Origin: an uncultured Gemmatimonadales bacterium
GTDB lineage: Bacteria > Gemmatimonadota > Gemmatimonadetes > Gemmatimonadales > GWC2-71-9
DNA: 64,000 nucleotides
Direction: 5' to 3'
Assembly: GCA_963748815.1 (NCBI GenBank)
Contig: CAVVKJ010000008.1
Span: forward strand, 1 to 64,000
In this document: positions 6,124 to 50,252 of the stretch, in pieces
Layout: the number at the start of each line of letters is the position of its first letter
Position numbering within the stretch: position 1 is the first letter of the stretch
Notes under the pieces: generated by a model
The model's input: only the letters and a program-made list of their open reading frames with translations
Databases searched by the model: none
What the model was told of the DNA's origin: nothing
Position numbers and translations under genes: made by a program

Positions 6124-6157
6124 GCGCGCCCTCGACAGCTGCATGCGCTGGTTAGGC
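6124..6157 (-). repeat. attC, truncated (only R''/L'' arm remains)
   Basis: gcgcgccctcgacagctgcatgcgctggttaggc with no partner arm. Confidence 0.85.
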
Positions 6158-6171
6158 TGCGCGGTCCACCA

Positions 6172-6480
6172 TTACCCGGCCTTCTCGTAGACCGGTACCT
6201 CACGCTCCAGTCGTGAGCCCAGACGATCCCGCTCGACATCCAGGTCATAGGCCGCCTGCAGGTTCAGCCAAAACCGGTCAGACGTACCAAAGAAGCGAGC
6301 GAGGCGCAGGGCGGTATCCGCGCTCACCCCACGCGTTCCGTGCACGATCTCATTGATCCGCCGCGCCGGCACCGAGAGGCTCTTCGCCAAGCGATACTGC
6401 GTCAGCTCCAGCGGCGCCAGAAACTCCTCGGCGAGCACCTCGCCGGGGTGGACCGGGGCCAGTCGCTTGCGAGTTGTCAT
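6172..6480 (-). CDS. higA: HigA family antitoxin (XRE HTH)
   Basis: PVHPGEVLAEEFL..LTQYRLA..RINEIVHG..TALRLARFFG..FWLNLQ. Confidence 0.95.
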   Translation of the reverse strand: MTTRKRLAPVHPGEVLAEEFLAPLELTQYRLAKSLSVPARRINEIVHGTRGVSADTALRLARFFGTSDRFWLNLQAAYDLDVERDRLGSRLEREVPVYEKAG

Positions 6481-6489
6481 CAGACCCTC

Positions 6490-6771
6490 CTAGTGATAAT
6501 CGACCATCTCGACCTGGCGCGCTTCCCCGTCTTTCCAGGTGAAGCATAGCCGCCATTGGTCATTGACCCGAATGCTCCATTGGCCGGCGCGATTCCCGCT
6601 GAGCTTCTCGAGCCGGTTGCCGGGGGGTACCCGCAGGTCGTCGATCCGAGTGGCGGCATCCAGCATTCGGAGCTTCCGTAACCCGGCGCGCTGGACATCC
6701 GGACCCCATCGCTTGACGGGCTCCCGGGCAAATAGCCGCTCGGTGTCTTTGTCACGGAAGCTGCGGATCAC
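6490..6771 (-). CDS. higB: HigB family toxin (RelE-like killer protein)
   Basis: MIRSFRDKDTE..PPGNRLEKLSG..WSIRVNDQWRLCF..VDYH. Confidence 0.95.
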   Translation of the reverse strand: MIRSFRDKDTERLFAREPVKRWGPDVQRAGLRKLRMLDAATRIDDLRVPPGNRLEKLSGNRAGQWSIRVNDQWRLCFTWKDGEARQVEMVDYH

Positions 6772-6777
6772 GGAGCT

Positions 6778-6806
6778 ATAGTAACGCGGCGCGTTACTAT
6801 TGTCAA
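6778..6806 (-). promoter_or_regulatory. higBA sigma70 promoter with palindromic operator
   Basis: TTGACA-17-TACTAT, 6 nt before GTG; ATAGTAACGCG-N-CGCGTTACTAT palindrome at 6778-6800. Confidence 0.85.
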
Positions 6807-6825
6807 GCGGGAGGAATTGCGCAGC

Positions 6826-7122
6826 CTAACGACGGGCTTGCCACCGGCGCGGATCGCGGCGACCGTGCATCACCGCCAGGACTGAGATACTTCCGGGCAA
6901 CACAACGAAGAAGATGAGATAGGGAAAGCGCCGAAGTCGTGCTCGGCGGATGTCGTCCACGGCGATGGGAAACTGTTCGGGAGCCCGTTCGATCGCCGCG
7001 AGGCCGATTCGGACAGCCCGGACGAATTCATGCCCCAATCCGGTGCTGCGCTCCTCATACCACCGAAATGCCTCAGCGAGCTCGGCCCGAGCCTCAGGCC
7101 GAAGAAACAAGCGCGGCGTCAT
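6826..7122 (-). CDS. RelE/ParE family toxin
   Basis: PEARAELAEAFRWYE..GLG..RRFPYLIFF..VLAVMHGRRDP. Confidence 0.9.
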   Translation of the reverse strand: MTPRLFLRPEARAELAEAFRWYEERSTGLGHEFVRAVRIGLAAIERAPEQFPIAVDDIRRARLRRFPYLIFFVVLPGSISVLAVMHGRRDPRRWQARR

Positions 7123-7334
7123 GCGCCGCGCTCTTCGATCTCGTCCAAGGCCTCCCCCCATGGCTGGCCAGGAGCCCCGTCTTTTGCGAGAGCGGCTCGG
7201 CGTCGCCTGAGCTCGGCCACCTGGTCCGGCGGCAGCTCCACGCTCTGTGGCTCAAGGCTATCCCAAAGCTGCTCAGCGAGTTCGATCCGCTCAGCCGGCG
7301 TCAGGTGGGAGAAGTCGAAGATTGGTGCGGTCAT
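7119..7334 (-). CDS. addiction-module antitoxin (unstable antitoxin family)
   Basis: LTPAERIELAEQLWDSL..ELRRR..GQPW; ATGA overlap with the toxin. Confidence 0.88.
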   Translation of the reverse strand: MTAPIFDFSHLTPAERIELAEQLWDSLEPQSVELPPDQVAELRRRRAALAKDGAPGQPWGEALDEIEERGA

Positions 7335-7340
7335 AAGTCT

Positions 7341-7369
7341 AATGTGGCAAGGAGCTTAGGTTCCCGCAA
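7341..7369 (-). promoter_or_regulatory. TA operon promoter
   Basis: TTGCGG-17-CACATT, 6 nt before ATG. Confidence 0.55.
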
Positions 7370-7391
7370 GATGGGTGGGGATGACGCTGAG

Positions 7392-7521
7392 GCCCAACGA
7401 ACGACAGGCGCATCAGCGGCGAGGGCGCTCGCGGCAGCCGCCGCGCTCCTTCGAGCAGTATCAGGCGCGGCGGCTGCCGCAGCGGGAGCGCGCCATCGAC
7501 AGCTGCATGCGCTGGTTAGGC
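7392..7521 (-). repeat. attC (aberrant R' region, GTTcGTTGGGC)
   Basis: Family repeat with extra bases at the R' end. Confidence 0.85.
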
Positions 7522-8022
7522 AGCACGGACACTGGATGCTGACTCGAAGGGATGCTGACGTGAAAGGACCGCGTCACAGACCCAAGGCCGACGCACGGCT
7601 CACGGGACAGCCCTTGGCCGACGCTTGCAATCACTCCAAGATGCCCGGGATCGGGGAAGACCACTGCCCGTAGTTCTTGCCAGTCGTATGGCCCGTGACC
7701 CAAAAGTATACGGACTGGCCACCGGCAGCCGTTCGCGCGACCGTAGACCGCAGGTGACTGGCAGGAGACGGCCCGTCTACAGAGGCTGTCGCTGTAGAAT
7801 GATCGGTCGTCAAACTGATGTAGATGCGGTAGCTCTGAGCAGACTCAACGGCGATAAACGCGAAACGTATAGTGCCAGTAGGTGGGGTCACAGACAGCGG
7901 AGCAAGAGCAAGTTGGTCGACGACCGGCAGAGACGCGCCATCGAGCGCCCCGCCAAGATTCCTCCGGGGGCGATGGCTGGGCACTTCTCCGGGACGGCGA
8001 TTCGTCTGGAAGGAATGTAGCT
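7522..8022 (-). pseudogene. degraded cassette with no clean ORF
   Basis: Bounded by attC sites; 5' end similar to the triplicated lipoprotein cassette; no intact start-to-stop ORF. Confidence 0.45.
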
Positions 8023-8150
8023 GCCTAACGAATGGCGCATCAACGGCGAGGGCGCTGCGCGGGAGCCGCCGCGCCGTCCTCGGATAGAACCTACGGCGTG
8101 GCGGCTGCCCGCACCAGCGCGCCCTCGCCAGCTGCATGCGCTGGTTAGGC
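8023..8150 (-). repeat. attC (divergent variant)
   Basis: gcctaac...gttaggc with diverged inner stem and loop. Confidence 0.88.
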
Positions 8151-8157
8151 GGCGCGG

Positions 8158-8562
8158 TCACTCGGAACGGCGCACGAGCTCCCAAAACCCCCTCGGCGAC
8201 AGGACAGGCAGCGGCACCGTGCCGTGGAGGACCAGCAGGTCTTGGTCGCCTGTGACGAGGACTTCTGCCCCACCCGCGAGGGCCGATGCCAGCACCCAGA
8301 GGTCGTCCGAGTCACGCACGGTCACATCGGGTGGGGTCTTGGGGCGGGGAATGATCGTTTGATCTCGGAGCAACTGCAGCACCAGCCCCACCTGCGCGGT
8401 CGGCACTCCCATTCGCTTCTGGAGCACGCGCTCAAGCTCGGCGAGATTGACCTCGCCGGTGAGGAGCTCATGTTCGGTGAGGATGAGGCGGACGACATCG
8501 GCACTGAGGCCGCGCGTTGTGAAGGCCGAAACGAGGACATTGGTGTCGAGGAAGACCTTCAT
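8158..8562 (-). CDS. PIN-domain toxin (PIN_3/VapC-like)
   Basis: VFLDTNVLVSA..ELERVL..RDSDDLWVLASA..LVTGDQDLL. Confidence 0.92.
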   Translation of the reverse strand: MKVFLDTNVLVSAFTTRGLSADVVRLILTEHELLTGEVNLAELERVLQKRMGVPTAQVGLVLQLLRDQTIIPRPKTPPDVTVRDSDDLWVLASALAGGAEVLVTGDQDLLVLHGTVPLPVLSPRGFWELVRRSE

Positions 8563-8774
8563 GACACGTCGCGGAACACATCCTCGTCGGTCAGCAGCCC
8601 GCGGGCCTCGGCGAAGGGCATGAGTTGCCGCCGAGCCTCGTCAAACCGGAGGATCGCCAGCTGGCGGCGCAAGGCGTCCCGGACCAGGTCCGAGCGGGTG
8701 CGGCCCAGGCGCTTGCTGAGGCGGTCGAGCTGGCGCTGGAGGGCGGGGTCGAGGCGAATCGTAACGGCTGCCAT
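8559..8774 (-). CDS. CopG/ribbon-helix-helix antitoxin
   Basis: VTIRLD..LDRLSKRLGRTRSDLVRDALRR..GLLTDEDVF; overlaps the PIN start. Confidence 0.88.
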   Translation of the reverse strand: MAAVTIRLDPALQRQLDRLSKRLGRTRSDLVRDALRRQLAILRFDEARRQLMPFAEARGLLTDEDVFRDVS

Positions 8775-8781
8775 GTAAGAC

Positions 8782-8810
8782 AATGTAATACGGGGTGGCA
8801 CATCGGTCAA
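8782..8810 (-). promoter_or_regulatory. TA operon promoter
   Basis: TTGACC-17-TACATT, 7 nt before ATG. Confidence 0.75.
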
Positions 8811-8820
8811 GCGAGGGGTT

Positions 8821-8902
8821 CCGCGCTGCCTCGCATTTAGCATAAAGCGCGGCGGCTGCCGCATATAGAGCGCGCCCTTCCAGCTGCATGCGCTGGTTAG
8901 GC
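8821..8902 (-). repeat. attC, truncated (L'/R' arm deleted)
   Basis: Loop plus R''-side arm only. Confidence 0.85.
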
Positions 8903-8918
8903 CGCCTCGGAAAGGGGT

Positions 8919-9353
8919 CTAACCGGAATAAACGGTTTCTTCGGGTTCGTCCGTGGAGCTCTCGAACTCCAGGCGATACCCATCGGGATCGGTGACTGAG
9001 GTAACCCACAGGCGGTTGCCGACGAATGGCCGCGTGGCGGACACCCCGCGGGACGTGAGGCCGTGGTAGACCGTCAAGGCGTCCGCGCACATGAAGCAGA
9101 TGGAGACTCCCTGGCCCAGTGCCCCCTCAGGGGCCTCCGCGCGGCGCCCATCGCGCCAGTATTCCTGGAGCATGAGGGCGGCATCGCCGAGCTGAAGCGA
9201 GCACCACCGGATGCGTCCCTCCGGGATCCACTGATTGGTCAGCACGAACCCGAGGCCCTCGACATAGAAACGAAGGGAAGCCTCAATGTCGGTGACGTTG
9301 AAAAAGGGCACCGCCTGCTTGACGTTGGGGCCGACCGTGGTCTCGGTGGACAT
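8919..9353 (-). CDS. VOC/glyoxalase (bleomycin-resistance-like) protein
   Basis: VPFFNVTDIEASLRFYVEGLGF..VTDPDGYRLEFES. Confidence 0.9.
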   Translation of the reverse strand: MSTETTVGPNVKQAVPFFNVTDIEASLRFYVEGLGFVLTNQWIPEGRIRWCSLQLGDAALMLQEYWRDGRRAEAPEGALGQGVSICFMCADALTVYHGLTSRGVSATRPFVGNRLWVTSVTDPDGYRLEFESSTDEPEETVYSG

Positions 9354-9383
9354 AAAGGAGTCCTCAGGACAAATCCGGATGCG

Positions 9384-9511
9384 GCCTAACGACTGGCGCA
9401 TCAGCGGCGAGGGCGCTCGCGGCAGCCGCCGCGCGACCTCGCAGTCAGTATAAAGCGCGGCGGCTGCCGCACATAGGGCGCGCCCTCGACAGCTGCATGC
9501 GCTGGCTAGGC
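9384..9511 (-). repeat. attC (R'' mutated AAC>AGC)
   Basis: gcctaac...gctaggc. Confidence 0.9.
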
Positions 9512-9539
9512 AGCGGCGCTCTCACCTGCGTGTCCGCCC

Positions 9540-9974
9540 TTAGTCCACTGTGCTGTGAGGCCAGACGATGACGAGAAGTGCCAAGAGCCCAGCACCAATC
9601 AGCACGGTTCGATACACGCCCTTCTCTGAGTCCCCGAGGCGAATGGAGTCCACCGCAGCCTGCGGTACCGCAATGCGGCAGGGCGTGCAATCGAGCCCTT
9701 TGTGATAAGGAATCCCCGACACGCTATCCGAGGTAATGTAAACGCCGTGCCATTGATCCACCTGAGTGGACTGCCAAACTTGAACCTGCTGCTTGGCTGG
9801 GAGCGTGCGGGGTGCTAGATCGTCCGAAGGTCGATGCCAACCAGCTCCGCAGGCCTCAGCGAGGAATAGTGACGCAGTGGTAAGGCTGACGATCCGCCAG
9901 CGCCTGTTCCTATGTGGAGAACTTGTCAGGGGCGACTCGGTGTTGATGGGAGCCCAACGGCCGCAGTCGGTCAC
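9540..9974 (-). CDS. hypothetical exported protein with CxxC and C-terminal TM
   Basis: Cassette ORF; paralog of 31648-32040. Confidence 0.7.
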   Translation of the reverse strand: MTDCGRWAPINTESPLTSSPHRNRRWRIVSLTTASLFLAEACGAGWHRPSDDLAPRTLPAKQQVQVWQSTQVDQWHGVYITSDSVSGIPYHKGLDCTPCRIAVPQAAVDSIRLGDSEKGVYRTVLIGAGLLALLVIVWPHSTVD

Positions 9975-9981
9975 CGACGCT

Positions 9982-10109
9982 GCCTAACGAATGGCGCATC
10001 AGCTGCGAGGGCGCTCGCGGCAGCCGCCGCGCGACCTCGCATCTAGTATAAAGCGCGGCGGCTGCCGCAGATAGAGCGCGCCCTCGTCAGCTGCATGCGC
10101 TGGTTAGCC
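9982..10109 (-). repeat. attC
   Basis: Full-length family repeat. Confidence 0.93.
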
Positions 10110-10116
10110 AGCCGGC

Positions 10117-10707
10117 TTAGGCACATAGGCGCAACGAGGTGATTGTCTGGACTACAACCCAGCCCTGAGGCTCTCGACGAAGGTACATGGTGCGAGGCAT
10201 CGGGACCGTGCAGCCACCCACCATATACGGAGCCATGTTCAAGAACAGCTCGCTCTCTGCTGCCATTTCCCACTGCGGCCATGTCCAACCCACCCCCGGG
10301 GAACCGACCCAGCCCCGGAAAGGCCGGATCGGCATCTTAATCGACACCTTCACATCCCCGTACCATTTCTGCAGGGAGTCGAGACCGACCACCCGGTCCT
10401 GGCCCCTAGGGCAATGAACAAGGTCCGCGCATTGCAATAGGAAGGGCGTGCGACCCAGCGCGCCCGCGAGGCTACCCTGAAGACCGGCATGCTTCGGAAA
10501 TTGCGGAATATCAAGCTGGAAAGACTTGCCCCGATACCAACTCGGTAGGGAGTCAGCGAGGTACGTGGCAACGGCAATGAAAATGAACGCAGTGTCGCGT
10601 TGGCTGAGAACTGGCTCGACCTTCGAACTGCCGTCCTTCTCCTGCGCGGCGAGGCTGGAGGTCAGGAGGCCAAGGGCAAGCAGCTTCGAGAAGTGGGTCA
10701 TGGTCAC
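10117..10707 (-). CDS. hypothetical secreted protein
   Basis: Signal peptide (SLAA-Q); fills the cassette. Confidence 0.7.
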   Translation of the reverse strand: MTMTHFSKLLALGLLTSSLAAQEKDGSSKVEPVLSQRDTAFIFIAVATYLADSLPSWYRGKSFQLDIPQFPKHAGLQGSLAGALGRTPFLLQCADLVHCPRGQDRVVGLDSLQKWYGDVKVSIKMPIRPFRGWVGSPGVGWTWPQWEMAAESELFLNMAPYMVGGCTVPMPRTMYLRREPQGWVVVQTITSLRLCA

Positions 10708-10720
10708 CAGAGGGAGGTCT

Positions 10721-10848
10721 GGCTAACGAATGGCGCATCAGCTGCGAGGGCGCTCGCGACAGCCGACGCGCGACCTCGCATTTAGCATAAGGCGCGGCGG
10801 CTGCCGCAGATAACGCGCGCCCCCGTCAGCTGCATATGCTGGTTGGAC
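10721..10848 (-). repeat. attC
   Basis: ggctaac...gttggac, slightly diverged. Confidence 0.9.
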
Positions 10849-10864
10849 GCCAACGCATGAGTTC

Positions 10865-11341
10865 TCAATGCTTGCGTTCCATGGGGTTCTCTCGGGAGGG
10901 CTGCTGCCCGAGGTCTTGGGCGAGCCCGATGAGAATGTCTTCGGGACCCCGGATGTAGCAGAGCCTGTAGATGTCTTCGTAGTCGACAACTTCATCCACC
11001 ACCGTTGCACCGAGCTTGCTGAGCCGGGCGAGGGTGTCGTCAATGTCCTCGACCGTGAACATCACGCGCAGGTATCCCAACGCGTTCACGGGGGCTGCGC
11101 GGTGGTCGGACGCGATGGCGGGGGCGTCGAAGCGTGAGAGCTCGAGGCGGCTGTGGCCGTCGGGTGTGCGCATCATGGCGATCTCGACCCGCTGCCCGCG
11201 CACTCCGGTGACGCGACTGGCCCATTCGCCTTCGATGGGCATGCGGCCTTCGAGGGCAAGGCCGAGCTCAGTGAAGAACTCTATGGCGGCATCGAGGTCT
11301 TCCACCACGATGCCGACGTTGTCCATACGCTTGACTGTCAT
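10865..11341 (-). CDS. VOC/glyoxalase family protein
   Basis: RMDNVGIVVEDLDAAIEFF..MMRTPDGHSRLEL..RLCYIRGPE. Confidence 0.92.
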   Translation of the reverse strand: MTVKRMDNVGIVVEDLDAAIEFFTELGLALEGRMPIEGEWASRVTGVRGQRVEIAMMRTPDGHSRLELSRFDAPAIASDHRAAPVNALGYLRVMFTVEDIDDTLARLSKLGATVVDEVVDYEDIYRLCYIRGPEDILIGLAQDLGQQPSRENPMERKH

Positions 11342-11355
11342 GATGCCTCGTTGGC

Positions 11356-11423
11356 GTCCAACGTAGTTACGCATCGGCTGCCGCCGCAAAAGCGCGCCCT
11401 CGACCGCTGGTGCAAGGTTGCTT
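11356..11423 (-). repeat. attC remnant (internal deletion, decayed R'')
   Basis: gtccaac..gcatcggctg joined directly to ccgccgcaaaagcgcgccctcgacc. Confidence 0.65.
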
Positions 11424-11452
11424 CTCCTAGTGGAGGGAGCAGGGCCCAAACG

Positions 11453-11848
11453 TCATTCCGTGGTCCGGCCGTCAAAGTGCTCGTGCGAGGCGTTGGCGTC
11501 GGCGCATGTCCTATGCACCGTCCCGTCGACGTGCTCGGGCGGCCCGTAGATCGTGTAGAGCCTGAGTGGTTTGTCGCCTTTCGCGATGACGTTGTGCTTC
11601 GCGCCCTGTGGCACGATGACACCGTCGTCGCCCTTCACCTTGTGGCAGACATCGTCGATCCAGATTTCCCCTTCGCCGCCCTCGATACGGAAGAACTGGT
11701 CGCGGTCGTCGTGGACCTCCTCACCGATCTCCTCCCCAGGCTGGATCGCCATAAGCACCAGTTGGAGGTTGTGGCCGGTGTACAGTACCTTGCGGAAGAG
11801 ATCATTCTCCTCCGTCAGCCGTTCGATATTGTCGACAAACCCGTTCAT
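11453..11848 (-). CDS. cupin domain protein
   Basis: FRKVLYTG..QLVLM..GEEIGEEVH..DQFFRIE..VPQGAKHNV..LYTIYGPPEH. Confidence 0.92.
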   Translation of the reverse strand: MNGFVDNIERLTEENDLFRKVLYTGHNLQLVLMAIQPGEEIGEEVHDDRDQFFRIEGGEGEIWIDDVCHKVKGDDGVIVPQGAKHNVIAKGDKPLRLYTIYGPPEHVDGTVHRTCADANASHEHFDGRTTE

Positions 11849-12762: not shown

Positions 12763-12883
12763 ACCCAACGAATTGCTGCGAGGGCGCTCGCGCCAGCCGC
12801 CGCGCGACCTCAAGATCAGTATAAAGCGCGGCGGCTGCCGCAGATCGCAGCGCGCCCTTGCCAGCTGCATGCGCTGGTTAGGC
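12763..12883 (-). repeat. attC with L' box deleted
   Basis: acccaacgaatt-gctgcgaggg; gcgcatca is missing. Confidence 0.85.
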
Positions 12884-18859: not shown

Positions 18860-18928
18860 GCCTAACGTAATGCGCGTCAGCTGCCGCAGATAGAGCGCGC
18901 CCTTGCCAGCTGCATGCGCTGGTTAGGC
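18860..18928 (-). repeat. attC with internal deletion (69 bp)
   Basis: cagctg joined to ccgcagatag; inner arm and loop lost. Confidence 0.88.
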
Positions 18929-18939
18929 GGCAGGAGCCT

Positions 18940-19647: not shown

Positions 19648-19666
19648 GTGAGCGATGTCTCCTGCC

Positions 19667-19794
19667 GCCTAACGAATGGCGCATCAGCTGCGAGGGCGCT
19701 CGCGGCAGCCGCCGCGCAGCCTCGCATTTAGTATAAAGCGCGGCGGCTGCCGCAACTAGAGCGCGCCCTCGACTGCTGCATGCGCTGGTTAGGC
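19667..19794 (-). repeat. attC
   Basis: Full-length family repeat. Confidence 0.93.
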
Positions 19795-23819: not shown

Positions 23820-23947
23820 GCCTAACGAATGGCGCATCAGCTGCGAGGGCGCTCGCGGCAGCCGCCGCGCGTCCTCGCAGTCAAGATAAAGCGCGGCGGC
23901 TGCCGCAGATAGAGCGCGCCCTCGTCAGCTGCATGCGCTGGTTAGGC
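23820..23947 (-). repeat. attC
   Basis: Full-length family repeat. Confidence 0.93.
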
Positions 23948-23957
23948 GGTGCCCTCA

Positions 23958-24569: not shown

Positions 24570-24588
24570 CGAGACCCTCCGGGCATCC

Positions 24589-24717
24589 GCCTAACGAATG
24601 GCGCATCAGCTGCGAGGGCGCTCGCGGCAGCCGCCGCGCAGCCTCGCAGTCAGTATACAGGCGCGGCGGCTGCCGCAGATAGAGCGCGCCCTCGCCAGCT
24701 GCATGCGCTGGTTAGGC
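24589..24717 (-). repeat. attC
   Basis: Full-length family repeat. Confidence 0.93.
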
Positions 24718-27906: not shown

Positions 27907-28033
27907 ACCTAACGAATGGCGCATCAGCTGCGAGGGCGCTCGCGGCAGCCGCCGCGCGACCTCGCAGCAGTATAAAGCGCGGCGGCTGCCGCAGATAGAG
28001 CGCGCCCTCGTCAGCTGCATGCGCTGGTTAGAC
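27907..28033 (-). repeat. attC
   Basis: Full-length family repeat. Confidence 0.93.
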
Positions 28034-28519
28034 CGCAGTGCCATCGTGATCTCTACCCGAGCGCCAGAGCCACAGACTCCCCGCCAACCAGACGATCCCC
28101 AAGGTGACAAGCATGCCCACGCGATTTGGGCTGGGAAGGTCAAACCTCTGGAGAAAGATCGGGGCCACGGCACCGGCGAGCGTGGTCCAAGTAAGGAGGC
28201 GAGACACCTTGGAGCGCCACGCGGAAAACCCTGCGGCGAGAGCCAGCCCTAGGACAAATGGGCTCGCAACGTGCCACGCCCGGAGTACGACATTGCCCGG
28301 AATCGGCCCGCCATGATTTAGACTGTATTGGACACCAGCGGCAGCGAGGGCGAGGACGGCGGACGCACCGAATCCTATCGCTGCGCGTCGCAGCGCCCGG
28401 CCGGTCGATTGATCTGCCTCGGGGGCGAGCCGCGCCGACTCTGCTTGAGCCTGCGCGATTTCGTGATACGATGGAGGAGCCCAGGCGGGGACGCGCACTG
28501 GCGCTTCTGGTGTATTCAT
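28028..28519 (-). CDS. hypothetical membrane protein
   Basis: MNTPEAP start; 4 TM; stop in R''. Confidence 0.7.
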   Translation of the reverse strand: MNTPEAPVRVPAWAPPSYHEIAQAQAESARLAPEADQSTGRALRRAAIGFGASAVLALAAAGVQYSLNHGGPIPGNVVLRAWHVASPFVLGLALAAGFSAWRSKVSRLLTWTTLAGAVAPIFLQRFDLPSPNRVGMLVTLGIVWLAGSLWLWRSGRDHDGTAV

Positions 28520-28546
28520 GGTGGCCCCGGTATTGGGAGCACTGCG

Positions 28547-28674
28547 GTCTAACGAATGGCGCATCAGCTGCGAGGGCGCTCGCGGCAGCCGCCGCGCGAC
28601 CTCGTTACCAGTATCAGGCGCGGCGGCTGCCGCAGATAGCGCGCGCCCTCGACTGCTGCATGCGCTGGTTAGGC
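28547..28674 (-). repeat. attC
   Basis: Full-length family repeat. Confidence 0.93.
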
Positions 28675-29497: not shown

Positions 29498-29625
29498 GCC
29501 TAACGAATGGCGCATCAGCTGCGAGGGCGCTCGCGGCAGCCGCCGCGCGACCTCGTAGTCAGTATAAAGCGCGGCGGCTGCCGCAGATAGAGCGCGCCCT
29601 CGACAGCTGCATGCGCTGGTTAGAC
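29498..29625 (-). repeat. attC
   Basis: Full-length family repeat. Confidence 0.93.
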
Positions 29626-29634
29626 GGCATTGAT

Positions 29635-30189
29635 TCAGTGATCGTGTGAACAGCCGTCGTAGTCAGGGCCCGGGATAAAGTTCATCGTCCCATCGGTTGC
29701 GATGAATGCTAGGAATATGGCGCCCTCATTGCGGACGAGGGTGGAACCGACCGTGAACAGCGTTACTGAGTTCACCCAGTCGCGCACATCGGACCATGAA
29801 AGAGTGAGGCGGTCTTGGCCTCGCGGCACGATGATGGGGTCGCTCGGTTGCAGTTGGAACTGGACGGCGCGATCGTCGAACCACTGGATGAAGTTCTGAC
29901 GCTGCTGTTCGCACCGACGCCGTGCGTCAGCGGGTAAGGCGTCAATTTCCCAGAGCCGGAGGAATCCTTCCCCAGGAAGAATGCCAGCCACGATGGGTGG
30001 GGACGCCAAAGCAAGGGCAGAAGTCGCGTCCTCGAGCTTCGCTTGCCTGGGAACCGGAAAGTTAGTGACCACCTCCATGATAGATGCAGCACGGGGGCCA
30101 AGAAACCGCTCGGCACCATGCGTAGCACCCGCCAATGTCAGAACTGCACTGGTTGGAGAAAGCAGCGCTGCCTCCCAAGTCCCAATCAA
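29635..30189 (-). CDS. hypothetical protein (start uncertain)
   Basis: ORF fills the cassette. Confidence 0.6.
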   Translation of the reverse strand: MIGTWEAALLSPTSAVLTLAGATHGAERFLGPRAASIMEVVTNFPVPRQAKLEDATSALALASPPIVAGILPGEGFLRLWEIDALPADARRRCEQQRQNFIQWFDDRAVQFQLQPSDPIIVPRGQDRLTLSWSDVRDWVNSVTLFTVGSTLVRNEGAIFLAFIATDGTMNFIPGPDYDGCSHDH

Positions 30190-30193
30190 TGCC

Positions 30194-30321
30194 GTCTAAC
30201 GAATGGCGCATCAGCTGCGAGGGCGCTCGCGGCAGCCGCCGCGCGACCTCGCTAGCAGTATAAAGCGCGGCGGCTGCCGCAGATAGAGCGCGCCCTCGAC
30301 AGCTGCATGCGCTGGTTAGGC
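30194..30321 (-). repeat. attC
   Basis: Full-length family repeat. Confidence 0.93.
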
Positions 30322-30379
30322 AGCGCCCCGGATTGACCTAGCGAAGTGACGACCGCGTAAGCTCGAGATGTGTGCCTCG

Positions 30380-30858: not shown

Positions 30859-30882
30859 CAGAGGTCCCTTCCACGGGCGTCT

Positions 30883-31010
30883 GCCTAACGAATGGCGCAT
30901 CAGCTGCGAGGGCGCTCGCGGCAGCCGCCGCGCGACCTCGCAGTCAGTATAAAGCGCGGCGGCTGCCGCAGATAGAGCGCGCCCTCGACAGCTGCATGCG
31001 CTGGTTAGGC
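30883..31010 (-). repeat. attC
   Basis: Full-length family repeat. Confidence 0.93.
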
Positions 31011-31041
31011 CTCAGCTGGCGACGGAGCTGTGACGCACGAC

Positions 31042-31455: not shown

Positions 31456-31498
31456 GCTGGCACTCTCCCGGCCCGCGCTCCGACTGCGAAGGCTGTAG

Positions 31499-31626
31499 GC
31501 CTAACGAATGGCGCATCAGCTGCGAGGGCGCTCGCGGCAGCCGCCGCGCGACCTCGCTAGCAGTATAAAGCGCGGCGGCTGCCGCAGATAGAGCGCGCCC
31601 TCGTCAGCTGCATGCGCTGGTTAGGC
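31499..31626 (-). repeat. attC
   Basis: Full-length family repeat. Confidence 0.93.
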
Positions 31627-36450: not shown

Positions 36451-36578
36451 GTCTAACGAATGGCGCATCAGCTGCGAGGGCGCTCGCGGCAGCCGCCGCG
36501 CATCCTCGCAGTCAGTATAAAGCGCGGCGGCTGCCGCAGATAGAGCGCGCCCTTGTCAGCTGCATGCGCTGGTTAGAC
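36451..36578 (-). repeat. attC
   Basis: Full-length family repeat. Confidence 0.93.
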
Positions 36579-37942: not shown

Positions 37943-38071
37943 GCCTAACGAATTGGCGCATCAGCTGCGAGGGCGCTCGCGGCAGCCGCCGCGGAGCCTC
38001 GCAGTCAGTATAAGGCGCGGCGGCTGCCGCAGATAGCGCGCGCCCTCGTCAGCTGCATGCGCTGGTTAGGC
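37943..38071 (-). repeat. attC
   Basis: Full-length family repeat. Confidence 0.93.
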
Positions 38072-40077: not shown

Positions 40078-40205
40078 GCCTAACGTACTGCGCATCAGCT
40101 GCGAGGGCGCTCGCGGCAGCCGCCGCGCGACCTCGCCAGTAGTATCAGGCGCGGCGGCTGCCGCCGCAAGAGCGCGCCCTCGACAGCTGCATGCGCTGGT
40201 TAGGC
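40078..40205 (-). repeat. attC
   Basis: Full-length family repeat. Confidence 0.93.
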
Positions 40206-43991: not shown

Positions 43992-44119
43992 GTCTAACGA
44001 ATGGCGCATCAGCTGCGAGGGCGCTCGCGGCAGCCGCCGCGCGACCTCGCTAGCAGTATAAAGCGCGGCGGCTGCCGCAGAAAGAGCGCGCCCTCGTCAG
44101 CTGCATGCGCTGGTTAGGC
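43992..44119 (-). repeat. attC
   Basis: Full-length family repeat. Confidence 0.93.
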
Positions 44120-44151
44120 CGCTCAGGCTAACGAGAGGTTGTGGTTCCGGA

Positions 44152-44649
44152 CTATCTCTCGTGGGTCGTCAAAATGTCATGTAGACGAACGGAATATGGA
44201 TCTTCGGAACTGCCGTGGTCCCATACGGCCCGGAATACTCGCGGTAGCACCAAGAGAAGCGCGACGAGCACCGCGACCTGCACCAGCGGACGATTCAGTG
44301 CAGGCCCCATCGTGACCAACGCGAGGAACACCAGCGGGAGCGTAAACAGGGAGCCGAAGCAGAGCTGTGGGATTGAGGCACCCATCCGGCCGTAAACGCT
44401 CGTGCGCCCTGCCTCCTCCACAATGCGGCCGTAGAATGCGCCCCCTCGCCAGAACCTCCGCGCGTGCGAACGAAGTAGAAGCTTTACCCTCGGCGGGGTG
44501 CCGCCGCTCAACAGAGGGTCGAGGTAGTTGTTATCGTCCGCGCGTAGGGGCTCAAGCCAACCGATGAGTGGCCAGGGATAGCTATGCTTGGTGATGCGTG
44601 AAAAGCACTCCTCGGGCGAAAGGTCGGTCTGAAGAACTAGCCGAGCCAT
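44152..44649 (-). CDS. hypothetical membrane protein
   Basis: AGGAGG RBS; 2 C-terminal TM. Confidence 0.72.
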   Translation of the reverse strand: MARLVLQTDLSPEECFSRITKHSYPWPLIGWLEPLRADDNNYLDPLLSGGTPPRVKLLLRSHARRFWRGGAFYGRIVEEAGRTSVYGRMGASIPQLCFGSLFTLPLVFLALVTMGPALNRPLVQVAVLVALLLVLPRVFRAVWDHGSSEDPYSVRLHDILTTHER

Positions 44650-44668
44650 TCTGCTCCCTCCTGAGTCG

Positions 44669-44796
44669 GCCTAACGAATGGCGCATCAGCTGCGAGGGCG
44701 CTCGCGGCAGCCGCCGCGCGACCTCAGGATCAGTATAAAGCGCGGCGGCTGCCGCAGATAGCGCGCGCCCTCGTCTGCTGCATGCGCTGGTTAGGC
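44669..44796 (-). repeat. attC
   Basis: Full-length family repeat. Confidence 0.93.
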
Positions 44797-45093
44797 CCCG
44801 CCTGTCCCTGGATACATCCGCTCGGCACGGAACACCAAGAGGATGTGAGCTTCCCTCGATTCAGGGAAGTAGCGGTAGACGATCCGATAGCTTCGCCACA
44901 GTACCTCGCGGAGCATCGGATCCTGGCGTTCCGGAACGTGACGACCGGACTCGGGGAACGCCTTCAGCCGACCGACCGCCGCAACGAGTTCAGCCGCAAC
45001 GAAGTCCGCATAGCGGACCGAGTCGCGGCTGACATATTCGTGGATCCCTGCCAGGTCTGATTGGGCCTGGAGGGTCCACTGCACTCTTGTCAT
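44791..45093 (-). CDS. ParE/RelE family toxin
   Basis: VQWTLQAQSDL..I..YVSRDS..FPESGRHVPE..YRIVYR. Confidence 0.9.
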   Translation of the reverse strand: MTRVQWTLQAQSDLAGIHEYVSRDSVRYADFVAAELVAAVGRLKAFPESGRHVPERQDPMLREVLWRSYRIVYRYFPESREAHILLVFRAERMYPGTGGA

Positions 45094-45266
45094 TTCGTGT
45101 ACCGGCGAACGATGTCATCATGGGGGGTCAACTGGCCGGCACTGGATTCGGCCAGCCCACGATTAATCTTGGCGAGAAACACAAGGCGCTCAATGGCGTC
45201 CTCAAGGGTTGCAGAGGGCGGCAGCTGATCGGCGACCTGGTGGACCTGATCTTTGGTGGTCGGCAT
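45090..45266 (-). CDS. cognate antitoxin (ParD-like)
   Basis: LPPSATLEDAIERLVFLAKINRGLAE..G..PHDD; ATGA overlap. Confidence 0.8.
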   Translation of the reverse strand: MPTTKDQVHQVADQLPPSATLEDAIERLVFLAKINRGLAESSAGQLTPHDDIVRRYTK

Positions 45267-45333
45267 AGTGCGCTCAGTGGGTCGGGGTCTTCCAAATGTC
45301 GATAGGGTGCCCGCTGGGGGCAAGGTGGCGTGG

Positions 45334-45461
45334 GCCTAACGAATGGCGCATCAGCTGCGAGGGCGCTCGCGGCAGCCGCCGCGCATCCTCGCTAGCAGTA
45401 TAAAGCGCGGCGGCTGCCGCAGATAGAGCGCGCCCTCGACAGCTGCATGCGCTGGTTAGGC
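45334..45461 (-). repeat. attC
   Basis: Full-length family repeat. Confidence 0.93.
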
Positions 45462-45468
45462 AGACCCA

Positions 45469-46005
45469 TCAATGGAACCCCAACGCGCTCCAGGTGCTGC
45501 GATCGTCGAACCCGTAACGAAGCCCCGTGCACTCCATAATCAGGACTCGCACCTTCAATGCGACCTCATCCGAAGTCCACCGGGTACTCTCCGCCTCAGC
45601 CCGGGTCCCGAGTTGTATTGCAAGACCCCACACCAATTCGCGGAGGGTCGCAATGCCTGATAAGAATGAGGCTGGGCGAGGTATGTCGGCAGGCCAGTCC
45701 GGCCGGTCGGCCGCCCGACGAACAGCCACCCAAATGTTAGGCCACGAGTCGGGCGGAATCAGGCTGACGAGGTCATCATCAAGGCGGGGGGCGGGTCGCG
45801 TCGGCAGTGCCGCACGAAACCCACGCCGAAGATCGAAATAGATCGATTGGATGTGGCGAGAATCGCCAGGTTGTGCCGCCACCTTTTCAGCGACGAGGCC
45901 GATCAAGTCACGAGGCGTCCGGAGGGTGGCGACCTCGGCGTCTGATAGGTCGATGCCGAATGCATCTTCGGCCGCCAGCACGAGCTCCACGCCTTGAAGT
46001 CCCAT
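45469..46005 (-). CDS. acyl-carrier-protein-like protein (apparently circularly permuted)
   Basis: N-terminal MGLQGVELVLAAEDAFGIDLSDAEVATLRT..DL; C-terminal EVALKVRVLIMECTG..WSALG. Confidence 0.7.
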   Translation of the reverse strand: MGLQGVELVLAAEDAFGIDLSDAEVATLRTPRDLIGLVAEKVAAQPGDSRHIQSIYFDLRRGFRAALPTRPAPRLDDDLVSLIPPDSWPNIWVAVRRAADRPDWPADIPRPASFLSGIATLRELVWGLAIQLGTRAEAESTRWTSDEVALKVRVLIMECTGLRYGFDDRSTWSALGFH

Positions 46006-46033
46006 TGTGTGCGAGCCCATGGTTGTGGGTTCT

Positions 46034-46161
46034 GCCTAACGAATGGCGCATCAGCTGCGAGGGCGTTCGCGGCAGCCGCCGCGCGACCTCGTAGTCAGTA
46101 TAAAGCGCGGCGGCTGCCGCAGATAGAGCGCGCCCTCGCCAGCTGCATGCGCTGGTTAGGT
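46034..46161 (-). repeat. attC
   Basis: Full-length family repeat. Confidence 0.93.
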
Positions 46162-46173
46162 GGCCCCATCCGC

Positions 46174-47097
46174 CTACGGCTCGCCTTTCCAGTTTGGGTC
46201 GCACATCACCGTGCCTTGAAGTTCCAGACCGCCGGGCGATCGCTGAGCAGACCAGTGGGCACCTGATCTGATGAGAATCAACAATTCTTCCGACATATGC
46301 CCCATCGACTGGTCCTTCTCACAGTCAACCACGCTGAGGACACTCACCCACGGCGTGACGTATGCGGTATCCGGTGCCGTGCGCCGAGGAAGTGTTGGGA
46401 GGCGGAGAAAGCTCGTTAGACCAAGGCCTCGGCATGCCGGCGTCCTCCAACTGGAACACATCGCCGCGATGCTCGAATCAGCGAGCCACTCGGCGAGCCA
46501 TTCCGTGGGGATCTGATTCCAGCCTGACTTTCCAGCGGAATCGAGGACGACGGTCGGGCCGGCCGGGCTGCGTGACGGTGCAGGGCTCCCGGTCATAGCC
46601 GCGACCTGCTCCAACTCGTCGCCGGCAACTGCCGTCCGAGGCCCATAGAAAGCGATCACCGCCTCCAGCATGCCATGAAGTTCTGCTTCCGGAATCGGGC
46701 CTGGCAGGTAGGAGTCCGGTTCTCCAGCGCGGCCAAGGCTGATCAGGATCCCGCTCGAGTCATTCTTCGAGGCCGACAGTGACATTTGAGTTCTTCGGTA
46801 CCCGATGAACGAAGATTGGAGGATCAAGCTGTCCACCGGCGCGCCGGCAAGGACCCAGCGGCCAAGGGAATCCGTCAAAGCCCCGCACCACGTGTTGACC
46901 ACGATGACCACCGCGTTGGGGATGGCCTCGCCACCAACATCGCGGACAACGCCGGACATCTCTCGCGAGTTCTGGACTGCTGGGCAGACGAGACCAGATC
47001 GTGAAGCGGCTGAAGGCTGGGCTGACGGAGCCTGTGGCGCGCAACCATGGGCGACTGTGGGGAGCACGAGAAGCAGGCCGATCCAGCCGGTCTTCAT
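46174..47097 (-). CDS. lipoprotein with carboxypeptidase-D-regulatory-like domain
   Basis: SGVVRD..GEAIPNAVV..TDSLGRW..SFIGY. Confidence 0.78.
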   Translation of the reverse strand: MKTGWIGLLLVLPTVAHGCAPQAPSAQPSAASRSGLVCPAVQNSREMSGVVRDVGGEAIPNAVVIVVNTWCGALTDSLGRWVLAGAPVDSLILQSSFIGYRRTQMSLSASKNDSSGILISLGRAGEPDSYLPGPIPEAELHGMLEAVIAFYGPRTAVAGDELEQVAAMTGSPAPSRSPAGPTVVLDSAGKSGWNQIPTEWLAEWLADSSIAAMCSSWRTPACRGLGLTSFLRLPTLPRRTAPDTAYVTPWVSVLSVVDCEKDQSMGHMSEELLILIRSGAHWSAQRSPGGLELQGTVMCDPNWKGEP

Positions 47098-47104
47098 GGG
47101 GTCC

Positions 47105-47233
47105 ACCTAACGAATTGGCGCATCAGCTGCGAGGGCGCTCGCGGCAGCCGCCGCGGAGCCTCGCAGTCAGTATAAGGCGCGGCGGCTGCCGCAGATAGAG
47201 CGCGCCCTCGTCAGCTGCATGCGCTGGTTAGGC
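47105..47233 (-). repeat. attC
   Basis: Full-length family repeat. Confidence 0.93.
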
Positions 47234-47251
47234 GGGCCGCCACATCCAGCG

Positions 47252-48034
47252 CTATTGCTGACTCCAGTAACAGTCGCCAGGAAAGATGGGGCGTACGATG
47301 CCGAACCACTTTCCGCCGGAAAGCTCGAATGCTCTCGTATGAGCTTCCGGGGCGTACCTGTCTAGGTACTCGCGGACTTGGTTTGTGGTGAAAGGTAGGT
47401 GGTAGCGCCCAGTGGCATCGCGATATGACCCGCGTGTGGCTAGAGTGGGCCAATCGACTGGCCATGGGGTAGTGGTCCCCGCGGACGAGAAGGCATCGAG
47501 TACAATCTCGAATTGGGTCGGGTGCCATGGGACCGCACCGGGATGCCGAAAGTCGAGAAGCCTCCGAGCCGCGTTGACGAAGGCCCTCGGCGTGCGTGGC
47601 TGAACACCGGCACTATTGGGCTTGAAGAGCCGGGCAGTCGAGTCGAGCAAGCCTTCGAGTGAAACACTTTTGCCTTGCTTCCCATTCCACGCCCAGACGG
47701 CATAACTTGGCGGTTCATAGTTGGCGGGCAGGTTGCTGTACCAATCACTGAGCTCGAAGAAGCTTGGTGACAGGGCCAAGGAGTCGAGGAGGTTGGAATA
47801 TTCCGATGATGACAGCGCGATCGTTGCATAGACTGGTGCCTCATCACGGTCCTGAATGCTATAGATGACGGTCCCATCCTCGTAGAGCACGGTCTGGGGC
47901 GCCGATGCCCACCAGATCGGGCTGGTATCGAAGGCCGGATAGACGAACAAGGCCACCACCGGCTGGATGACGGCAGTATCGGTCTGGGGCGCGGCTCCTA
48001 GGCCAGCGAGAGTGATTGTCATCAGTAGGGACAT
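47252..48034 (-). CDS. hypothetical secreted protein
   Basis: Signal peptide; P..VLYEDGTVIY motif. Confidence 0.72.
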   Translation of the reverse strand: MSLLMTITLAGLGAAPQTDTAVIQPVVALFVYPAFDTSPIWWASAPQTVLYEDGTVIYSIQDRDEAPVYATIALSSSEYSNLLDSLALSPSFFELSDWYSNLPANYEPPSYAVWAWNGKQGKSVSLEGLLDSTARLFKPNSAGVQPRTPRAFVNAARRLLDFRHPGAVPWHPTQFEIVLDAFSSAGTTTPWPVDWPTLATRGSYRDATGRYHLPFTTNQVREYLDRYAPEAHTRAFELSGGKWFGIVRPIFPGDCYWSQQ

Positions 48035-48045
48035 TGAGCGGCTCT

Positions 48046-48173
48046 GCCTAACGAATGGCGCATCAGCTGCGAGGGCGCGTGCGGCAGCCGCCGCGCGACC
48101 TCGGATTTAGTATAAAGCGGGGCGGCTGCCGCAGATAGAGCGCGCCCTCGACAGCTGCATGCGCTGGTTAGAT
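48046..48173 (-). repeat. attC
   Basis: Full-length family repeat. Confidence 0.93.
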
Positions 48174-48195
48174 GGCGCTGGACCAACATCCGTAC

Positions 48196-48648
48196 CTAGG
48201 TGGGTTCGGTTCGAAGGATGACTTCTAGAGTGCCGAGCGATGTGGCGAGCAGCACTTCTTGGGAAGATGGGCTCACCTTGGCATTCTCTGACCGGCTCCA
48301 GAGGTCGCGGGCTTCCGGACTTATGAGAGGCGATGCTAGCGAAGCTTCCGCGCGAGCGCCAAAGTCGGGACCCGCCTCCAATCGAACCACACCTACGGCA
48401 TCACATCGGCTCAACGGCACCTTGTAGTCCATCGGGAACATCTCTTGACCCTCGGCGAAGCTTCGCTCGATCGCAGCGCGGTTTGTCCTAGCGACGCCAT
48501 GCTGGTCGGTGAGACCGACTAGGGTGCCGAAATAGTATCGGCCGCTGCAGTGAACGTCGAGGGCGACCAGCAGGTCGCTAATCAGGCCTGGGGAACCGGC
48601 AGGGCACTCGACTCTCACGATGAGGGCGTCGGGCAGAGCGAGTGCCAA
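48196..48648 (-). CDS. hypothetical protein
   Basis: GGAG RBS + TTG start; fills the cassette. Confidence 0.65.
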   Translation of the reverse strand: MALALPDALIVRVECPAGSPGLISDLLVALDVHCSGRYYFGTLVGLTDQHGVARTNRAAIERSFAEGQEMFPMDYKVPLSRCDAVGVVRLEAGPDFGARAEASLASPLISPEARDLWSRSENAKVSPSSQEVLLATSLGTLEVILRTEPT

Positions 48649-48671
48649 AATATCTCCGAGGTTTGTGCGCC

Positions 48672-48799
48672 ATCTAACGAATGGCGCATCAGCTGCGAGG
48701 GCGCTCGCGGCAGCCGCCGCGCGACCTCGTCAACAGTATTAGGCGCGGCGGCTGCCGCCGCAAGAGGGCGCCCTCGACAGCTGCATGCGCTGGTTAGGC
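48672..48799 (-). repeat. attC
   Basis: Full-length family repeat. Confidence 0.93.
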
Positions 48800-49096
48800 G
48801 CCTTCCGGCGCCTCGGGCTCAGTGGCCAATTGGGCACTGTGCCATACGCCCACAACCCAAACGGTGGTGCCCTGGACTCGGTAGAAAAACCGATAGGGTC
48901 GGACGATTACCTCGCGGTAGGGCAGGCCACGAAACTCGGGAATGCGCCGTCCTGACTCGGGGAACTTCTCCAGCCGACCCAGCGCCTTGAGTGCCCGAGT
49001 GTGAAAGCGACGCGCGGCCGTGGGGCGATCGGCGAGAATGTAGGCGATGACGTCGAGGAACTGCCGGTCGCCCGACGGGGTGAAGCGCACCTTCAC
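48794..49096 (-). CDS. RelE/ParE family toxin
   Basis: VRFTPS..LEKFPESGRRIPEF..PYRFFYRV..VWH. Confidence 0.9.
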   Translation of the reverse strand: MKVRFTPSGDRQFLDVIAYILADRPTAARRFHTRALKALGRLEKFPESGRRIPEFRGLPYREVIVRPYRFFYRVQGTTVWVVGVWHSAQLATEPEAPEGA

Positions 49097-49374
49097 GCGT
49101 TGGCGTCCCGCAGCATCTGCTCGGCCTCGGCAAAGACGGCCGCGAGCTCACGGCCCTTACCCTTTGCGATCTCACGCTCTCCAGTTGCGAGGATACGAAG
49201 AATCTCGCGCTCCCGCTCACCCAACTCGTAGGCTTCCATGCTGAGCATGACAGCGGCGGCCCGGCCACGCTGGGTGATAACCACGGGCTCACGGGACCGG
49301 CGGACGCGATCGAGCGCACCGGCCGCATCCTGGCGGAGGTCGGTAATCGGAATGATGTCGGGCATCTTGGGCAT
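49093..49374 (-). CDS. Phd/YefM family antitoxin
   Basis: IIPITDLRQDA..PVVITQRGRAAAVMLS..YE. Confidence 0.92.
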   Translation of the reverse strand: MPKMPDIIPITDLRQDAAGALDRVRRSREPVVITQRGRAAAVMLSMEAYELGEREREILRILATGEREIAKGKGRELAAVFAEAEQMLRDANA

Positions 49375-49385
49375 GGCGGAGGCAC

Positions 49386-49432
49386 CTGTTAGATGTACGT
49401 CTAACAGTACTATGCGACGATCGGGAGCGCAA
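49386..49432 (-). promoter_or_regulatory. phd operon promoter and operator
   Basis: TTGCGC-17-TACTGT; CTGTTAGA-N6-TCTAACAG palindrome at 49386-49407. Confidence 0.7.
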
Positions 49433-49480
49433 GAAGGAAGGTGGGGAAGCCCGGACGGGTTGGGGACTGGACGGAAGTGC

Positions 49481-49608
49481 GCCTAACGAATGGCGCATCA
49501 GCTGCGAGGGCGCTCGCGGCAGCCGCCGCGCATCCTCGCAGTCAGTATACAGCGCGGCGGCTGCCGCAGATAGAGCGCGCCCTCGTCAGCTGCATGCGCT
49601 GGTTAGGC
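49481..49608 (-). repeat. attC (first cassette)
   Basis: Full-length family repeat. Confidence 0.93.
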
Positions 49609-49627
49609 AGCGACATGCGTCAATTCT

Positions 49628-50176
49628 TTATCGTTCAGCAATCATGGTTTCCATCAAGCGCGCGCCGGCCGGCCGGGACAACTCATGGCTCACCGAGTAT
49701 CCCTGCCATCGCAGGCGCCCCCGCCTGTCGATCAAATATCCGGTGGGCAAGCCTGTTACGACATAGTTCGTCCGAAAGATCTCATTCTGGTCCATCGCGA
49801 CAATTCCACCTGGGCCGCCAAACTTTTCGACAAATGCTCTCACCGCCGTGCTATCGGCGAGCTCTTCCAACGCAACATGAACAACCTTGACCCCGCGGCC
49901 TCGCAATGTGTTTGCGACACTGTCCAACGCGGGCATCGAGTACTTGCAGTTCTCGCACGACCGAGCCCAAGCCTCCAATACTAGCACCTGGCCAGCGAAG
50001 CTCTGGAGGGTAAGAGTGTCGTGAGGAGAAGCCAGGTCAACAAGGGTGAACGATGGTGCTGCCATCTCGATATCCAACGGGTTCGCATCCTGGTGACGCC
50101 GAAACTCGAGATAGGTAACGGTTGCCCCAACGAGGAGGACCGTGAATAGGAGGGGCGAGGGACGACGGATAAGCAC
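49628..50176 (-). CDS. TlpA-family thioredoxin-like disulfide reductase (first cassette)
   Basis: N-terminal TM; APSFTL..WARSCENC..MP..GLPTGYLIDRRG. Confidence 0.88.
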   Translation of the reverse strand: MLIRRPSPLLFTVLLVGATVTYLEFRRHQDANPLDIEMAAPSFTLVDLASPHDTLTLQSFAGQVLVLEAWARSCENCKYSMPALDSVANTLRGRGVKVVHVALEELADSTAVRAFVEKFGGPGGIVAMDQNEIFRTNYVVTGLPTGYLIDRRGRLRWQGYSVSHELSRPAGARLMETMIAER

Positions 50177-50189
50177 CTCCGTGGCGTCT

Positions 50190-50252
50190 GCCTAACGTGA
50201 ATTCGGCGGCGGAGGGGTACCTCCGCCTCATCTCCAGTCTATATCCCGCAGC
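50190..50252 (-). other. putative attI site (crossover G/TTAGGC at 50196/50195)
   Basis: Only cassette junction with GTTRRRY but no attC arm; lies between the intI stop and the first cassette. Confidence 0.75.

Follow-up and report, generated by a model that had tools for sequence, protein, structure and literature searches.

A bulged base at a fixed position of the R' arm in a Gemmatimonadales chromosomal integron as a likely mate of the second L''-side extrahelical attC base

We analyzed a 64,000-nucleotide stretch of an uncultured Gemmatimonadales genome (contig CAVVKJ010000008.1, positions 1 to 64,000; hereafter 'the window') that contains a sedentary chromosomal integron – a gene for an integron integrase (IntI), an attI site, and an array of cassettes with their attC recombination sites. 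The intI gene is co-directional, being transcribed towards attI and the array. Published accounts describe attC by three features that are left unpaired: the extrahelical bases G16 and T23/T24, the unpaired central spacer, and the variable terminal structure (PMC2727003, PMC5027507). In half of the window's cassettes we find a further unpaired base, at position 10 of the R' arm, and its position, strand, and sequence context support its identification as the symmetry mate of the second extrahelical base on the L'' side.

The original prediction held that the two ends of each cassette are complementary past the 7-base-pair (bp) core in sequence private to that cassette, and that about two dozen cassettes pair only if an A at position 10 of the R' side is bulged out. 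We read the 5' end of each cassette from the G of the GTT and compared it with the reverse complement of the cassette's own R'' flank. Position 10 of the R' end is A in 26 of 51 ends and C in the other 25, with G and T absent, and the partner position opposite it is C in 45 of 51. The number of bulged cassettes is thus as anticipated, and bulge position and identity are not random once all ends are aligned.

Setting aside one unidentified junction (8765) and three duplicate copies left 47 ends (23 A, 24 C). At the private positions 11–14, A ends matched their own partners at 0.79 only with a one-base offset; their flush match (0.36) was at chance, and shuffled partners gave 0.34 with a maximum of 0.48 in 5000. 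C ends matched only flush (0.71, compared with 0.30 for shuffled partners). These shuffles rule out chance pairing as the source of the extended complementarity. In an unbiased single-gap scan of the 47 ends, R' position 10 was the sole gap site in 16; the gap fell at position 10 or a tied neighbor in two more and elsewhere in three, and 26 ends had no gap. End pairing runs for ~13–14 bp in both classes and reaches background at 14–15, so the claim of private complementarity stands. For the flush class, C at position 10 was correctly foreseen; perfect pairing over 12–17 bp was not general, as only 17 of the 24 identified C ends reach 12 bp free of mismatches.

Folding of the circularized bottom strands with DNA parameters separated the two classes in the expected way. 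Across 48 of the 51 sites (the other three lacked a full attC or junction), position 10 was extruded between paired positions 9 and 11 in 25 of 26 A ends, the exception being that at 36457, and was paired in all 22 C ends. We therefore consider the bulge observation confirmed as real and reproducible. The stem had also been proposed to exist only in the excised circle or as a loop around the gene. The circular form is indeed more stable than pairing with the array neighbor at these 48 sites, by 5.7 kcal/mol for A ends and 8.6 kcal/mol for C ends, but positions 1–10 are a shared consensus and also pair with the neighbor, so the stem is not confined to the circle.

All nine arms quoted as examples were located where they had been placed, on the minus strand. 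Five A-class arms pair over 9 bp before the bulged A and 4–6 bp behind it: 49472–49487 (bulge 49478, 6 bp; partner 48793–48807), 47096–47111 (bulge 47102, 6 bp; partner 46155–46169), 31492–31505 (bulge 31496, 4 bp; partner 31004–31016), 30875–30889 (bulge 30880, 5 bp; partner 30315–30328), and 24581–24595 (bulge 24586, 5 bp; partner 23941–23954). The cassette of the arm at 31505 is present in two more copies, which start at 37949 and 42174 and follow different neighbors. The weakest example is the attI junction, where the arm at 50196 pairs with its partner at 49602 over 9 bp, the A, and 2 bp. The three C-class arms pair flush over 17 bp (30184–30200; partner 29619–29635), 15 bp (28539–28553; partner 28027–28041), and again 15 bp (19659–19673; partner 18922–18936, in a cassette whose own attC is shortened to about 69 bp). 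The other A-class arms, spanning 10718–48052 on the same strand, have their G at 48052, 46040, 45340, 44675, 42174, 41558, 40845, 38647, 37949, 36457, 35030, 32708, 32084, 29504, 25170, 23826, 22985, 21313, 18866, and 10727, with the bulge nine positions lower in each.

The attC sites themselves combine canonical and unusual traits. Their R boxes carry GTT/AAC, and the L box has an extra base at L'' position 4; in a typical site (29498–29625, minus strand) this is a top-strand G, hence a bottom-strand C, with the second extrahelical base 6 bp further on. The canonical 6-bp spacing is thus retained. The canonical bottom-strand identities, G then T, are not: the window has C and then A, T, or C, the second base being T in 24, A in 18, and G in eight of 50 sites on the top strand. 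The central spacer measures 5 nucleotides on the R'' side and 8 (in some sites 9) on the R' side rather than the canonical 5–6 per arm; in one fold it is predicted to shrink to a 3-nucleotide bulge beside two G-T pairs. Extra bases are canonically confined to the R''-L'' arm, and the 26 bulged ends place one on the R' arm.

Of the two simple sites in attC, L'' and R' each form the right half. Counting from the published G16 and T23/T24 numbering, the first extra base of the L'' arm follows 3 bp from the inner edge and the second comes 6 bp beyond it, hence after 9 bp in all; the fold gives the same register. The R' bulge likewise comes after 9 bp. Its bottom-strand base is a T located 5' of AAC, like T23/T24, on the strand whose cleavage would fall to the adjacent monomer. 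The base context agrees as well. Bulged R' arms (n=90) have G6 at 0.72, C7 at 0.88, G9 at 0.82, A10 by definition, and C11 at 0.83; L'' arms with the first extra base removed (n=412) have G6 at 0.68, C7 at 0.69, G9 at 0.91, A10 at 0.51, and C11 at 0.69. The context common to both is GCNG[A]C. In the class 1 sites of our data L'' reads GTTCAAGC followed by CGAC, and six window R' ends read GTTAGGCCGAC. These comparisons support the R' bulge as the symmetry mate of the second L''-side base, and they give specific form to the first of two explanations originally offered, an additional structural signal lying beyond the R box. We rejected the idea that the ends derive from recombination at the family's own L'' box, as that box begins CATG and has an extra base absent from every R' end.

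We examined whether the paired ends bear signs of selection and inheritance. Among 158 isolated mismatches at positions 4–13 in 374 cassettes from 32 loci, bottom-strand G-T wobbles outnumbered top-strand ones by 52 to 22, a ratio of 0.70; within-array shuffles gave 0.54, with a maximum of 0.62 in 2000. Among 32 homologous open reading frame (ORF) pairs below 92% identity, five were A/A (down to 28%), 16 flush/flush, two A/flush, and nine other. Homologous cassettes mostly agree in ends and class down to 28–67% protein identity. Compensatory changes are seen in the arms of homologous cassettes. In all 12 pairs picked by hand, the arms also resembled each other more than did the flanks beyond them, a contrast inflated by the shared consensus and by ungapped comparison. 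From these sequence comparisons we conclude that the ends are old, carried along with the cassette, and kept paired on the recombining strand. The bottom-strand wobble bias, together with inheritance of the ends, makes the stem look selected rather than freshly stamped.

Two further approaches added little. The position of stop codons proved uninformative as a test of copying direction because the consensus leaves little room for a stop, and a search for circle junctions in four contig sets of relatives returned only attC-driven joints, none trustworthy. Separately, one pair of homologous cassettes from loci L268 and L270 (script coordinates 4359 and 14685; 73% DNA identity) agrees in the outer arms up to position 11 and over much of the flanks, with unrelated inner attCs of 143 and 100 bp. 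This single example suggests that a host-type attC can replace a cassette's inner attC.

We next asked how widely the bulge occurs. The sample comprised regions beside integron integrases, namely those of relatives and of genomes drawn near named loci of Planctomycetota, Acidobacteriota, Citrobacter, and Pseudomonas, together with 160 profile-found loci. Our attC heuristic recovered 44–45 of the window cassettes; it yielded 633 candidate cassettes overall, of which 509 passed the filter (five or more matches among the six positions 4–9, or origin in the window), with 458 remaining after redundancy was removed. AT-rich gammaproteobacterial attC sites were poorly recovered, the Pseudomonadaceae sample is thin (six regions, five cassettes kept), 40 regions came from the order of a Citrobacter genome, and the positive loci are mostly kin, fetched mainly on the downstream side. 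Gap counts at positions 11 and 12 were not used, being largely position-10 bulges counted again through tolerance.

Within this sample the bulge is restricted to arrays with co-directional integrases. A bulged A at position 10 with two or more pairs behind it is present in 21 of 50 cassettes from the window's own genome, in 45 of 230 from other co-directional arrays (16 of 29 loci), and in none of 178 from arrays with a divergent intI (46 loci), which answers the concern that it might be a general attC property. Requiring three pairs left 19, 28, and 0, respectively. A private three-base match was present in 16 of 50 own-genome cassettes (0.7 with shuffled partners) and in none of 140 divergent ones. 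Strict position-10 bulges in co-directional arrays have A in 47 of 53. The 23 co-directional integrases form one group in a tree of 43, with support of 90/86, below the starred level; by the loosest test the bulge is present in 15 of their 23 arrays. It was found in Gemmatirosa, a Planctomycetota, Acidobacteriota genomes, and metagenome contigs, often with only one or two pairs behind it. We rejected a dependence on a long L'-R' spacer, since arrays with spacers of 7–9 range from 0 to over 60% bulged and arrays with a spacer of 6 are bulged too.

Some other loci deserve mention. In L277 none of 22 cassettes is bulged, the L-side T is lacking, and the integrase has Q for the first pocket histidine; this is a single case, and the L204 integrase has the same Q with the L-side T present. 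Tandem G-A pairs are stable in DNA. In two Acidobacteriota-phylum loci with divergent intI (L287 and L288), seven of 23 cassettes have TC on R' against GA on the partner at positions 9–10 (once 10–11), which would make a tandem G-A pair on the bottom strand alone – a different strand-specific feature in the same place. Outside these two loci we saw two such cases and four of the reverse.

The reading we moderately favor takes the extension as the R-side integrase arm and the T as a fourth unpaired feature of attC, optional and read by IntI. On the bottom-strand attC, once folded, the extension would form the outer part of the R-side binding arm; this arm would be covered by the R-box IntI monomer, as the L arm is by its partner. 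The R-arm T would enter the beta4-5 pocket in which T23/T24 is held in cis and would tune binding or the stability of the synapse of the incoming circle; it more probably helps mobility or leaves it unchanged than blocks it. The arm halves, located at opposite cassette ends, would co-evolve by compensatory change while the inner attC is homogenized across the array, so that ends could be private yet complementary. The length of the R'/R'' stem fits the 9–13 bp arms of tyrosine recombinases. In arrays that have both classes, 10 of 13 multi-copy families are bulged, compared with 78 of 175 singletons (p=0.04; arrays and test were chosen post hoc). Bulged cassettes are nearer attI in the window array (p=0.01); no significant enrichment near attI was seen in nine of nine other arrays.

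The integrase itself has most of the pocket residues. Its gene (50253–51281, minus strand) encodes 342 amino acids that match TIGR02249 at 421.5 bits (cut-off 265) and Pfam PF00589 and PF13495, and both the TIGR02249 match and alignment to 2a3v and IntI1 indicate the IntI-specific insertion. The closest solved relative is 2a3v (E=1.9e-79). Pocket residues have been named by Larouche and Roy 2011 (PMC3053210); by alignment the window IntI keeps equivalents of P232, H240, and H241 and of K209, Y210, and W219, and has R at the equivalent of W157, as does IntI1.

Several observations weigh against this R-arm reading. The bulge is lacking in eight of the 23 co-directional arrays, including one of the same genus (0/10), and in half of the window cassettes, and is thus dispensable. 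In the other co-directional arrays the private three-base match falls to 11 of 220 (shuffled 1.5, maximum 7), indicating shorter post-bulge pairing, and because the positive loci are largely kin our counts overstate independence. The pocket proline, judged by eye, is kept in seven of 23 co-directional integrases compared with 17 of 20 divergent ones, several bulge-rich arrays have an integrase lacking it, and with 16 of 23 missing it the pocket may behave differently in this clade. Bulge class does not covary with the L-side base of the same cassette (T14/A9/G3 in the A class, T10/A9/G5 in the C class); the same lack of association led us to reject the bulge as compensation for a missing L-side T. 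The two A/flush homolog pairs belong to one gene family and have unrelated ends. Finally, binding of T24 in cis disorganizes the catalytic site (PMC2727003), so recombination should suffer if the cleaving monomer made this contact, and the multi-copy excess of bulged cassettes does not fit a hindering contact without an extra assumption.

A wider version of the R-arm reading is possible, although we hold it only tentatively: the half-site read by co-directional IntIs would be symmetric, both arms being able to carry a flipped T, and a heritable T/no-T switch, split between the cassette ends and complete only in the circle, would set each cassette's own recombination rate. If so, the outer 6–7 bp and a fourth element of control are missing from the current attC model; the inner attC would then be an exchangeable module flanked by cassette-owned arms.

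Among alternatives, a scar of cassette genesis is unlikely but fares best. Here the second end would be copied from the first by fold-back fill-in or template switching, and an untemplated or slipped A, merely tolerated by selection, would mark the joint after 9 bp. Copying is the easiest route to private complementary sequence, cassette formation is described as largely unknown, the two classes are discrete and about equal in number, most long ORFs stop outside the arm, and arrays with nearly the same attC differ strongly in bulge share (0/10 versus 19/46). However, a scar gives no reason for the mirror position and the L''-type base context, and it sits poorly with G bulges that also fall at position 10 (five of 34 strict bulges outside the window genome). 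The bottom-strand wobble bias, and the persistence of ends and class at 28–67% protein identity with compensatory changes, weaken it further; these same findings reduce the appeal of a genesis footprint, the second explanation originally offered, while leaving it some weight.

We think it decidedly unlikely that the bulge is a neutral relic – an ancestral symmetric half-site, or old founder ends inherited in the clade – in which the stem is selected and the bulge goes unread by IntI. The patchy distribution within the clade (15 of 23 arrays), inheritance of class with the cassette, and frequent loss of the pocket proline would all suit a relic. However, both the position and the base of an unread bulge would be expected to drift, and the window has only two states at position 10 in 51 ends, while A predominates among strict co-directional bulges (47 of 53). 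Least credible to us is a brake, in which the R-arm T in the pocket of the cleaving monomer imposes a non-attacking state and lowers excision so that a long array stays stable: it extrapolates directly from the published T24 role (PMC2727003) and suits a long sedentary array with distal toxin-antitoxin cassettes, but the multi-copy cassettes are the bulged ones (10 of 13) and bulged cassettes lie nearer attI in the window, though not in the other nine arrays.

The rest of the locus is organized as follows. The array comprises 51 R'' ends (6151–50196, minus strand) with attC sites mostly of 127–130 bp, and in 40 of 50 the inner attC is at least 0.9 of the reference copy. The attI crossover, G / TT at 50196 (50187–50203, minus strand), leads into an A-class first cassette with its bulged A at 50187, and this first junction lies 57 bp from the intI stop. 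A candidate Pc promoter, consisting of two hexamers 17 nucleotides apart (50236–50264, minus strand), overlaps the intI stop codon and appears by eye to be conserved in four same-genus genomes, although a consensus promoter scan missed it. Its spacer contains a copy of the R' consensus, an R'-like half-site that is possibly an accessory IntI site overlapping the promoter. A perfect 8-bp hairpin at 50208–50227, just upstream of the crossover, is not conserved among the relatives compared.

Shortened or truncated attC sites are concentrated distally (18866–18928, 12763–12883, 11362–11450, 8765–8902, and 6030–6157), and the distal array end (6172–8864) encodes toxin-antitoxin modules – ParE with an addiction-module antitoxin and PIN with RHH – along with an HTH gene. 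Identical cassettes occur behind different neighbors and on a second contig. There, a second cluster (G000:C10:176082-188109) has nine attC sites of the window family, no integron integrase, and three cassettes in common with the window; the cassette at window position 40084 has a two-base bulge, and its copy on C10 a one-base bulge. One further attC of the family lies on contig C2. Upstream of intI, 52250–58802 holds repeated Big_2 and beta-propeller ORFs on opposite strands, including two 473-amino-acid frames 3225 bp apart that look duplicated. Among plasmid records, the best named match to the window IntI is Gemmatirosa (57%), which together with the integrase tree points to a Gemmatimonadota host.

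The integron is ordinary in kind, and the arm extension is known in outline: Bouvier 2009 reports that most cassettes self-pair over 9–11 consecutive nucleotides (PMC2727003), so the extended complementarity, unlike the bulge, is not new. A full-text literature search, covering main text only, returned no description of the R'-arm bulge, though older cassette alignments could show the feature. A search for stretches resembling this one returned no match. As far as we searched, there is apparently no description of an extrahelical T fixed on the R arm, of its symmetry with T23/T24, or of its confinement to arrays with co-directional integrases. Extrahelical bases are defined as lying on the R''-L'' arm (PMC2727003), and analyses commonly cut attC at the 7-bp R boxes; the bulge is invisible in sites cut this way because its two halves sit at opposite cassette ends. 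A fourth feature mirroring the base that silences the non-cleaving monomer would offer a one-base handle on which monomer IntI lets cut. It would also explain cassette-end pairing beyond the R box, may tune how often a cassette moves, and bears on whether end pairing is selected or left by cassette genesis.

The window attC resembles known sites in its R''-L''-L'-R' order, bottom-strand hairpin, G / TT crossover, pairing past the 7-bp R box, and two L''-arm extra bases 6 bp apart. Published extrahelical bases lie at 16 and at 23 or 24 (Nivina 2016, PMC5027507), and the stem around the second matters although it is outside the L box (Nivina 2020, PMC7439510). The window differs in adding an R'-arm extra base outside the usual attC boundary, in an extension of 13–14 rather than 9–11 bp, in an L'-R' spacer of 8 nucleotides, and in a first extra base that is C and a second that is variable on the bottom strand. 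Its atypical layout, with intI transcribed towards attI, is that of Treponema-type integrons (PMC3607928). Relative to the VchIntIA-VCR complex (PDB 2A3V), the window IntI has the residues that hold the two extra bases, except W157; in that complex only the non-attacking monomers hold the T, whereas the window attC offers a T at the equivalent place to the R-box monomer.

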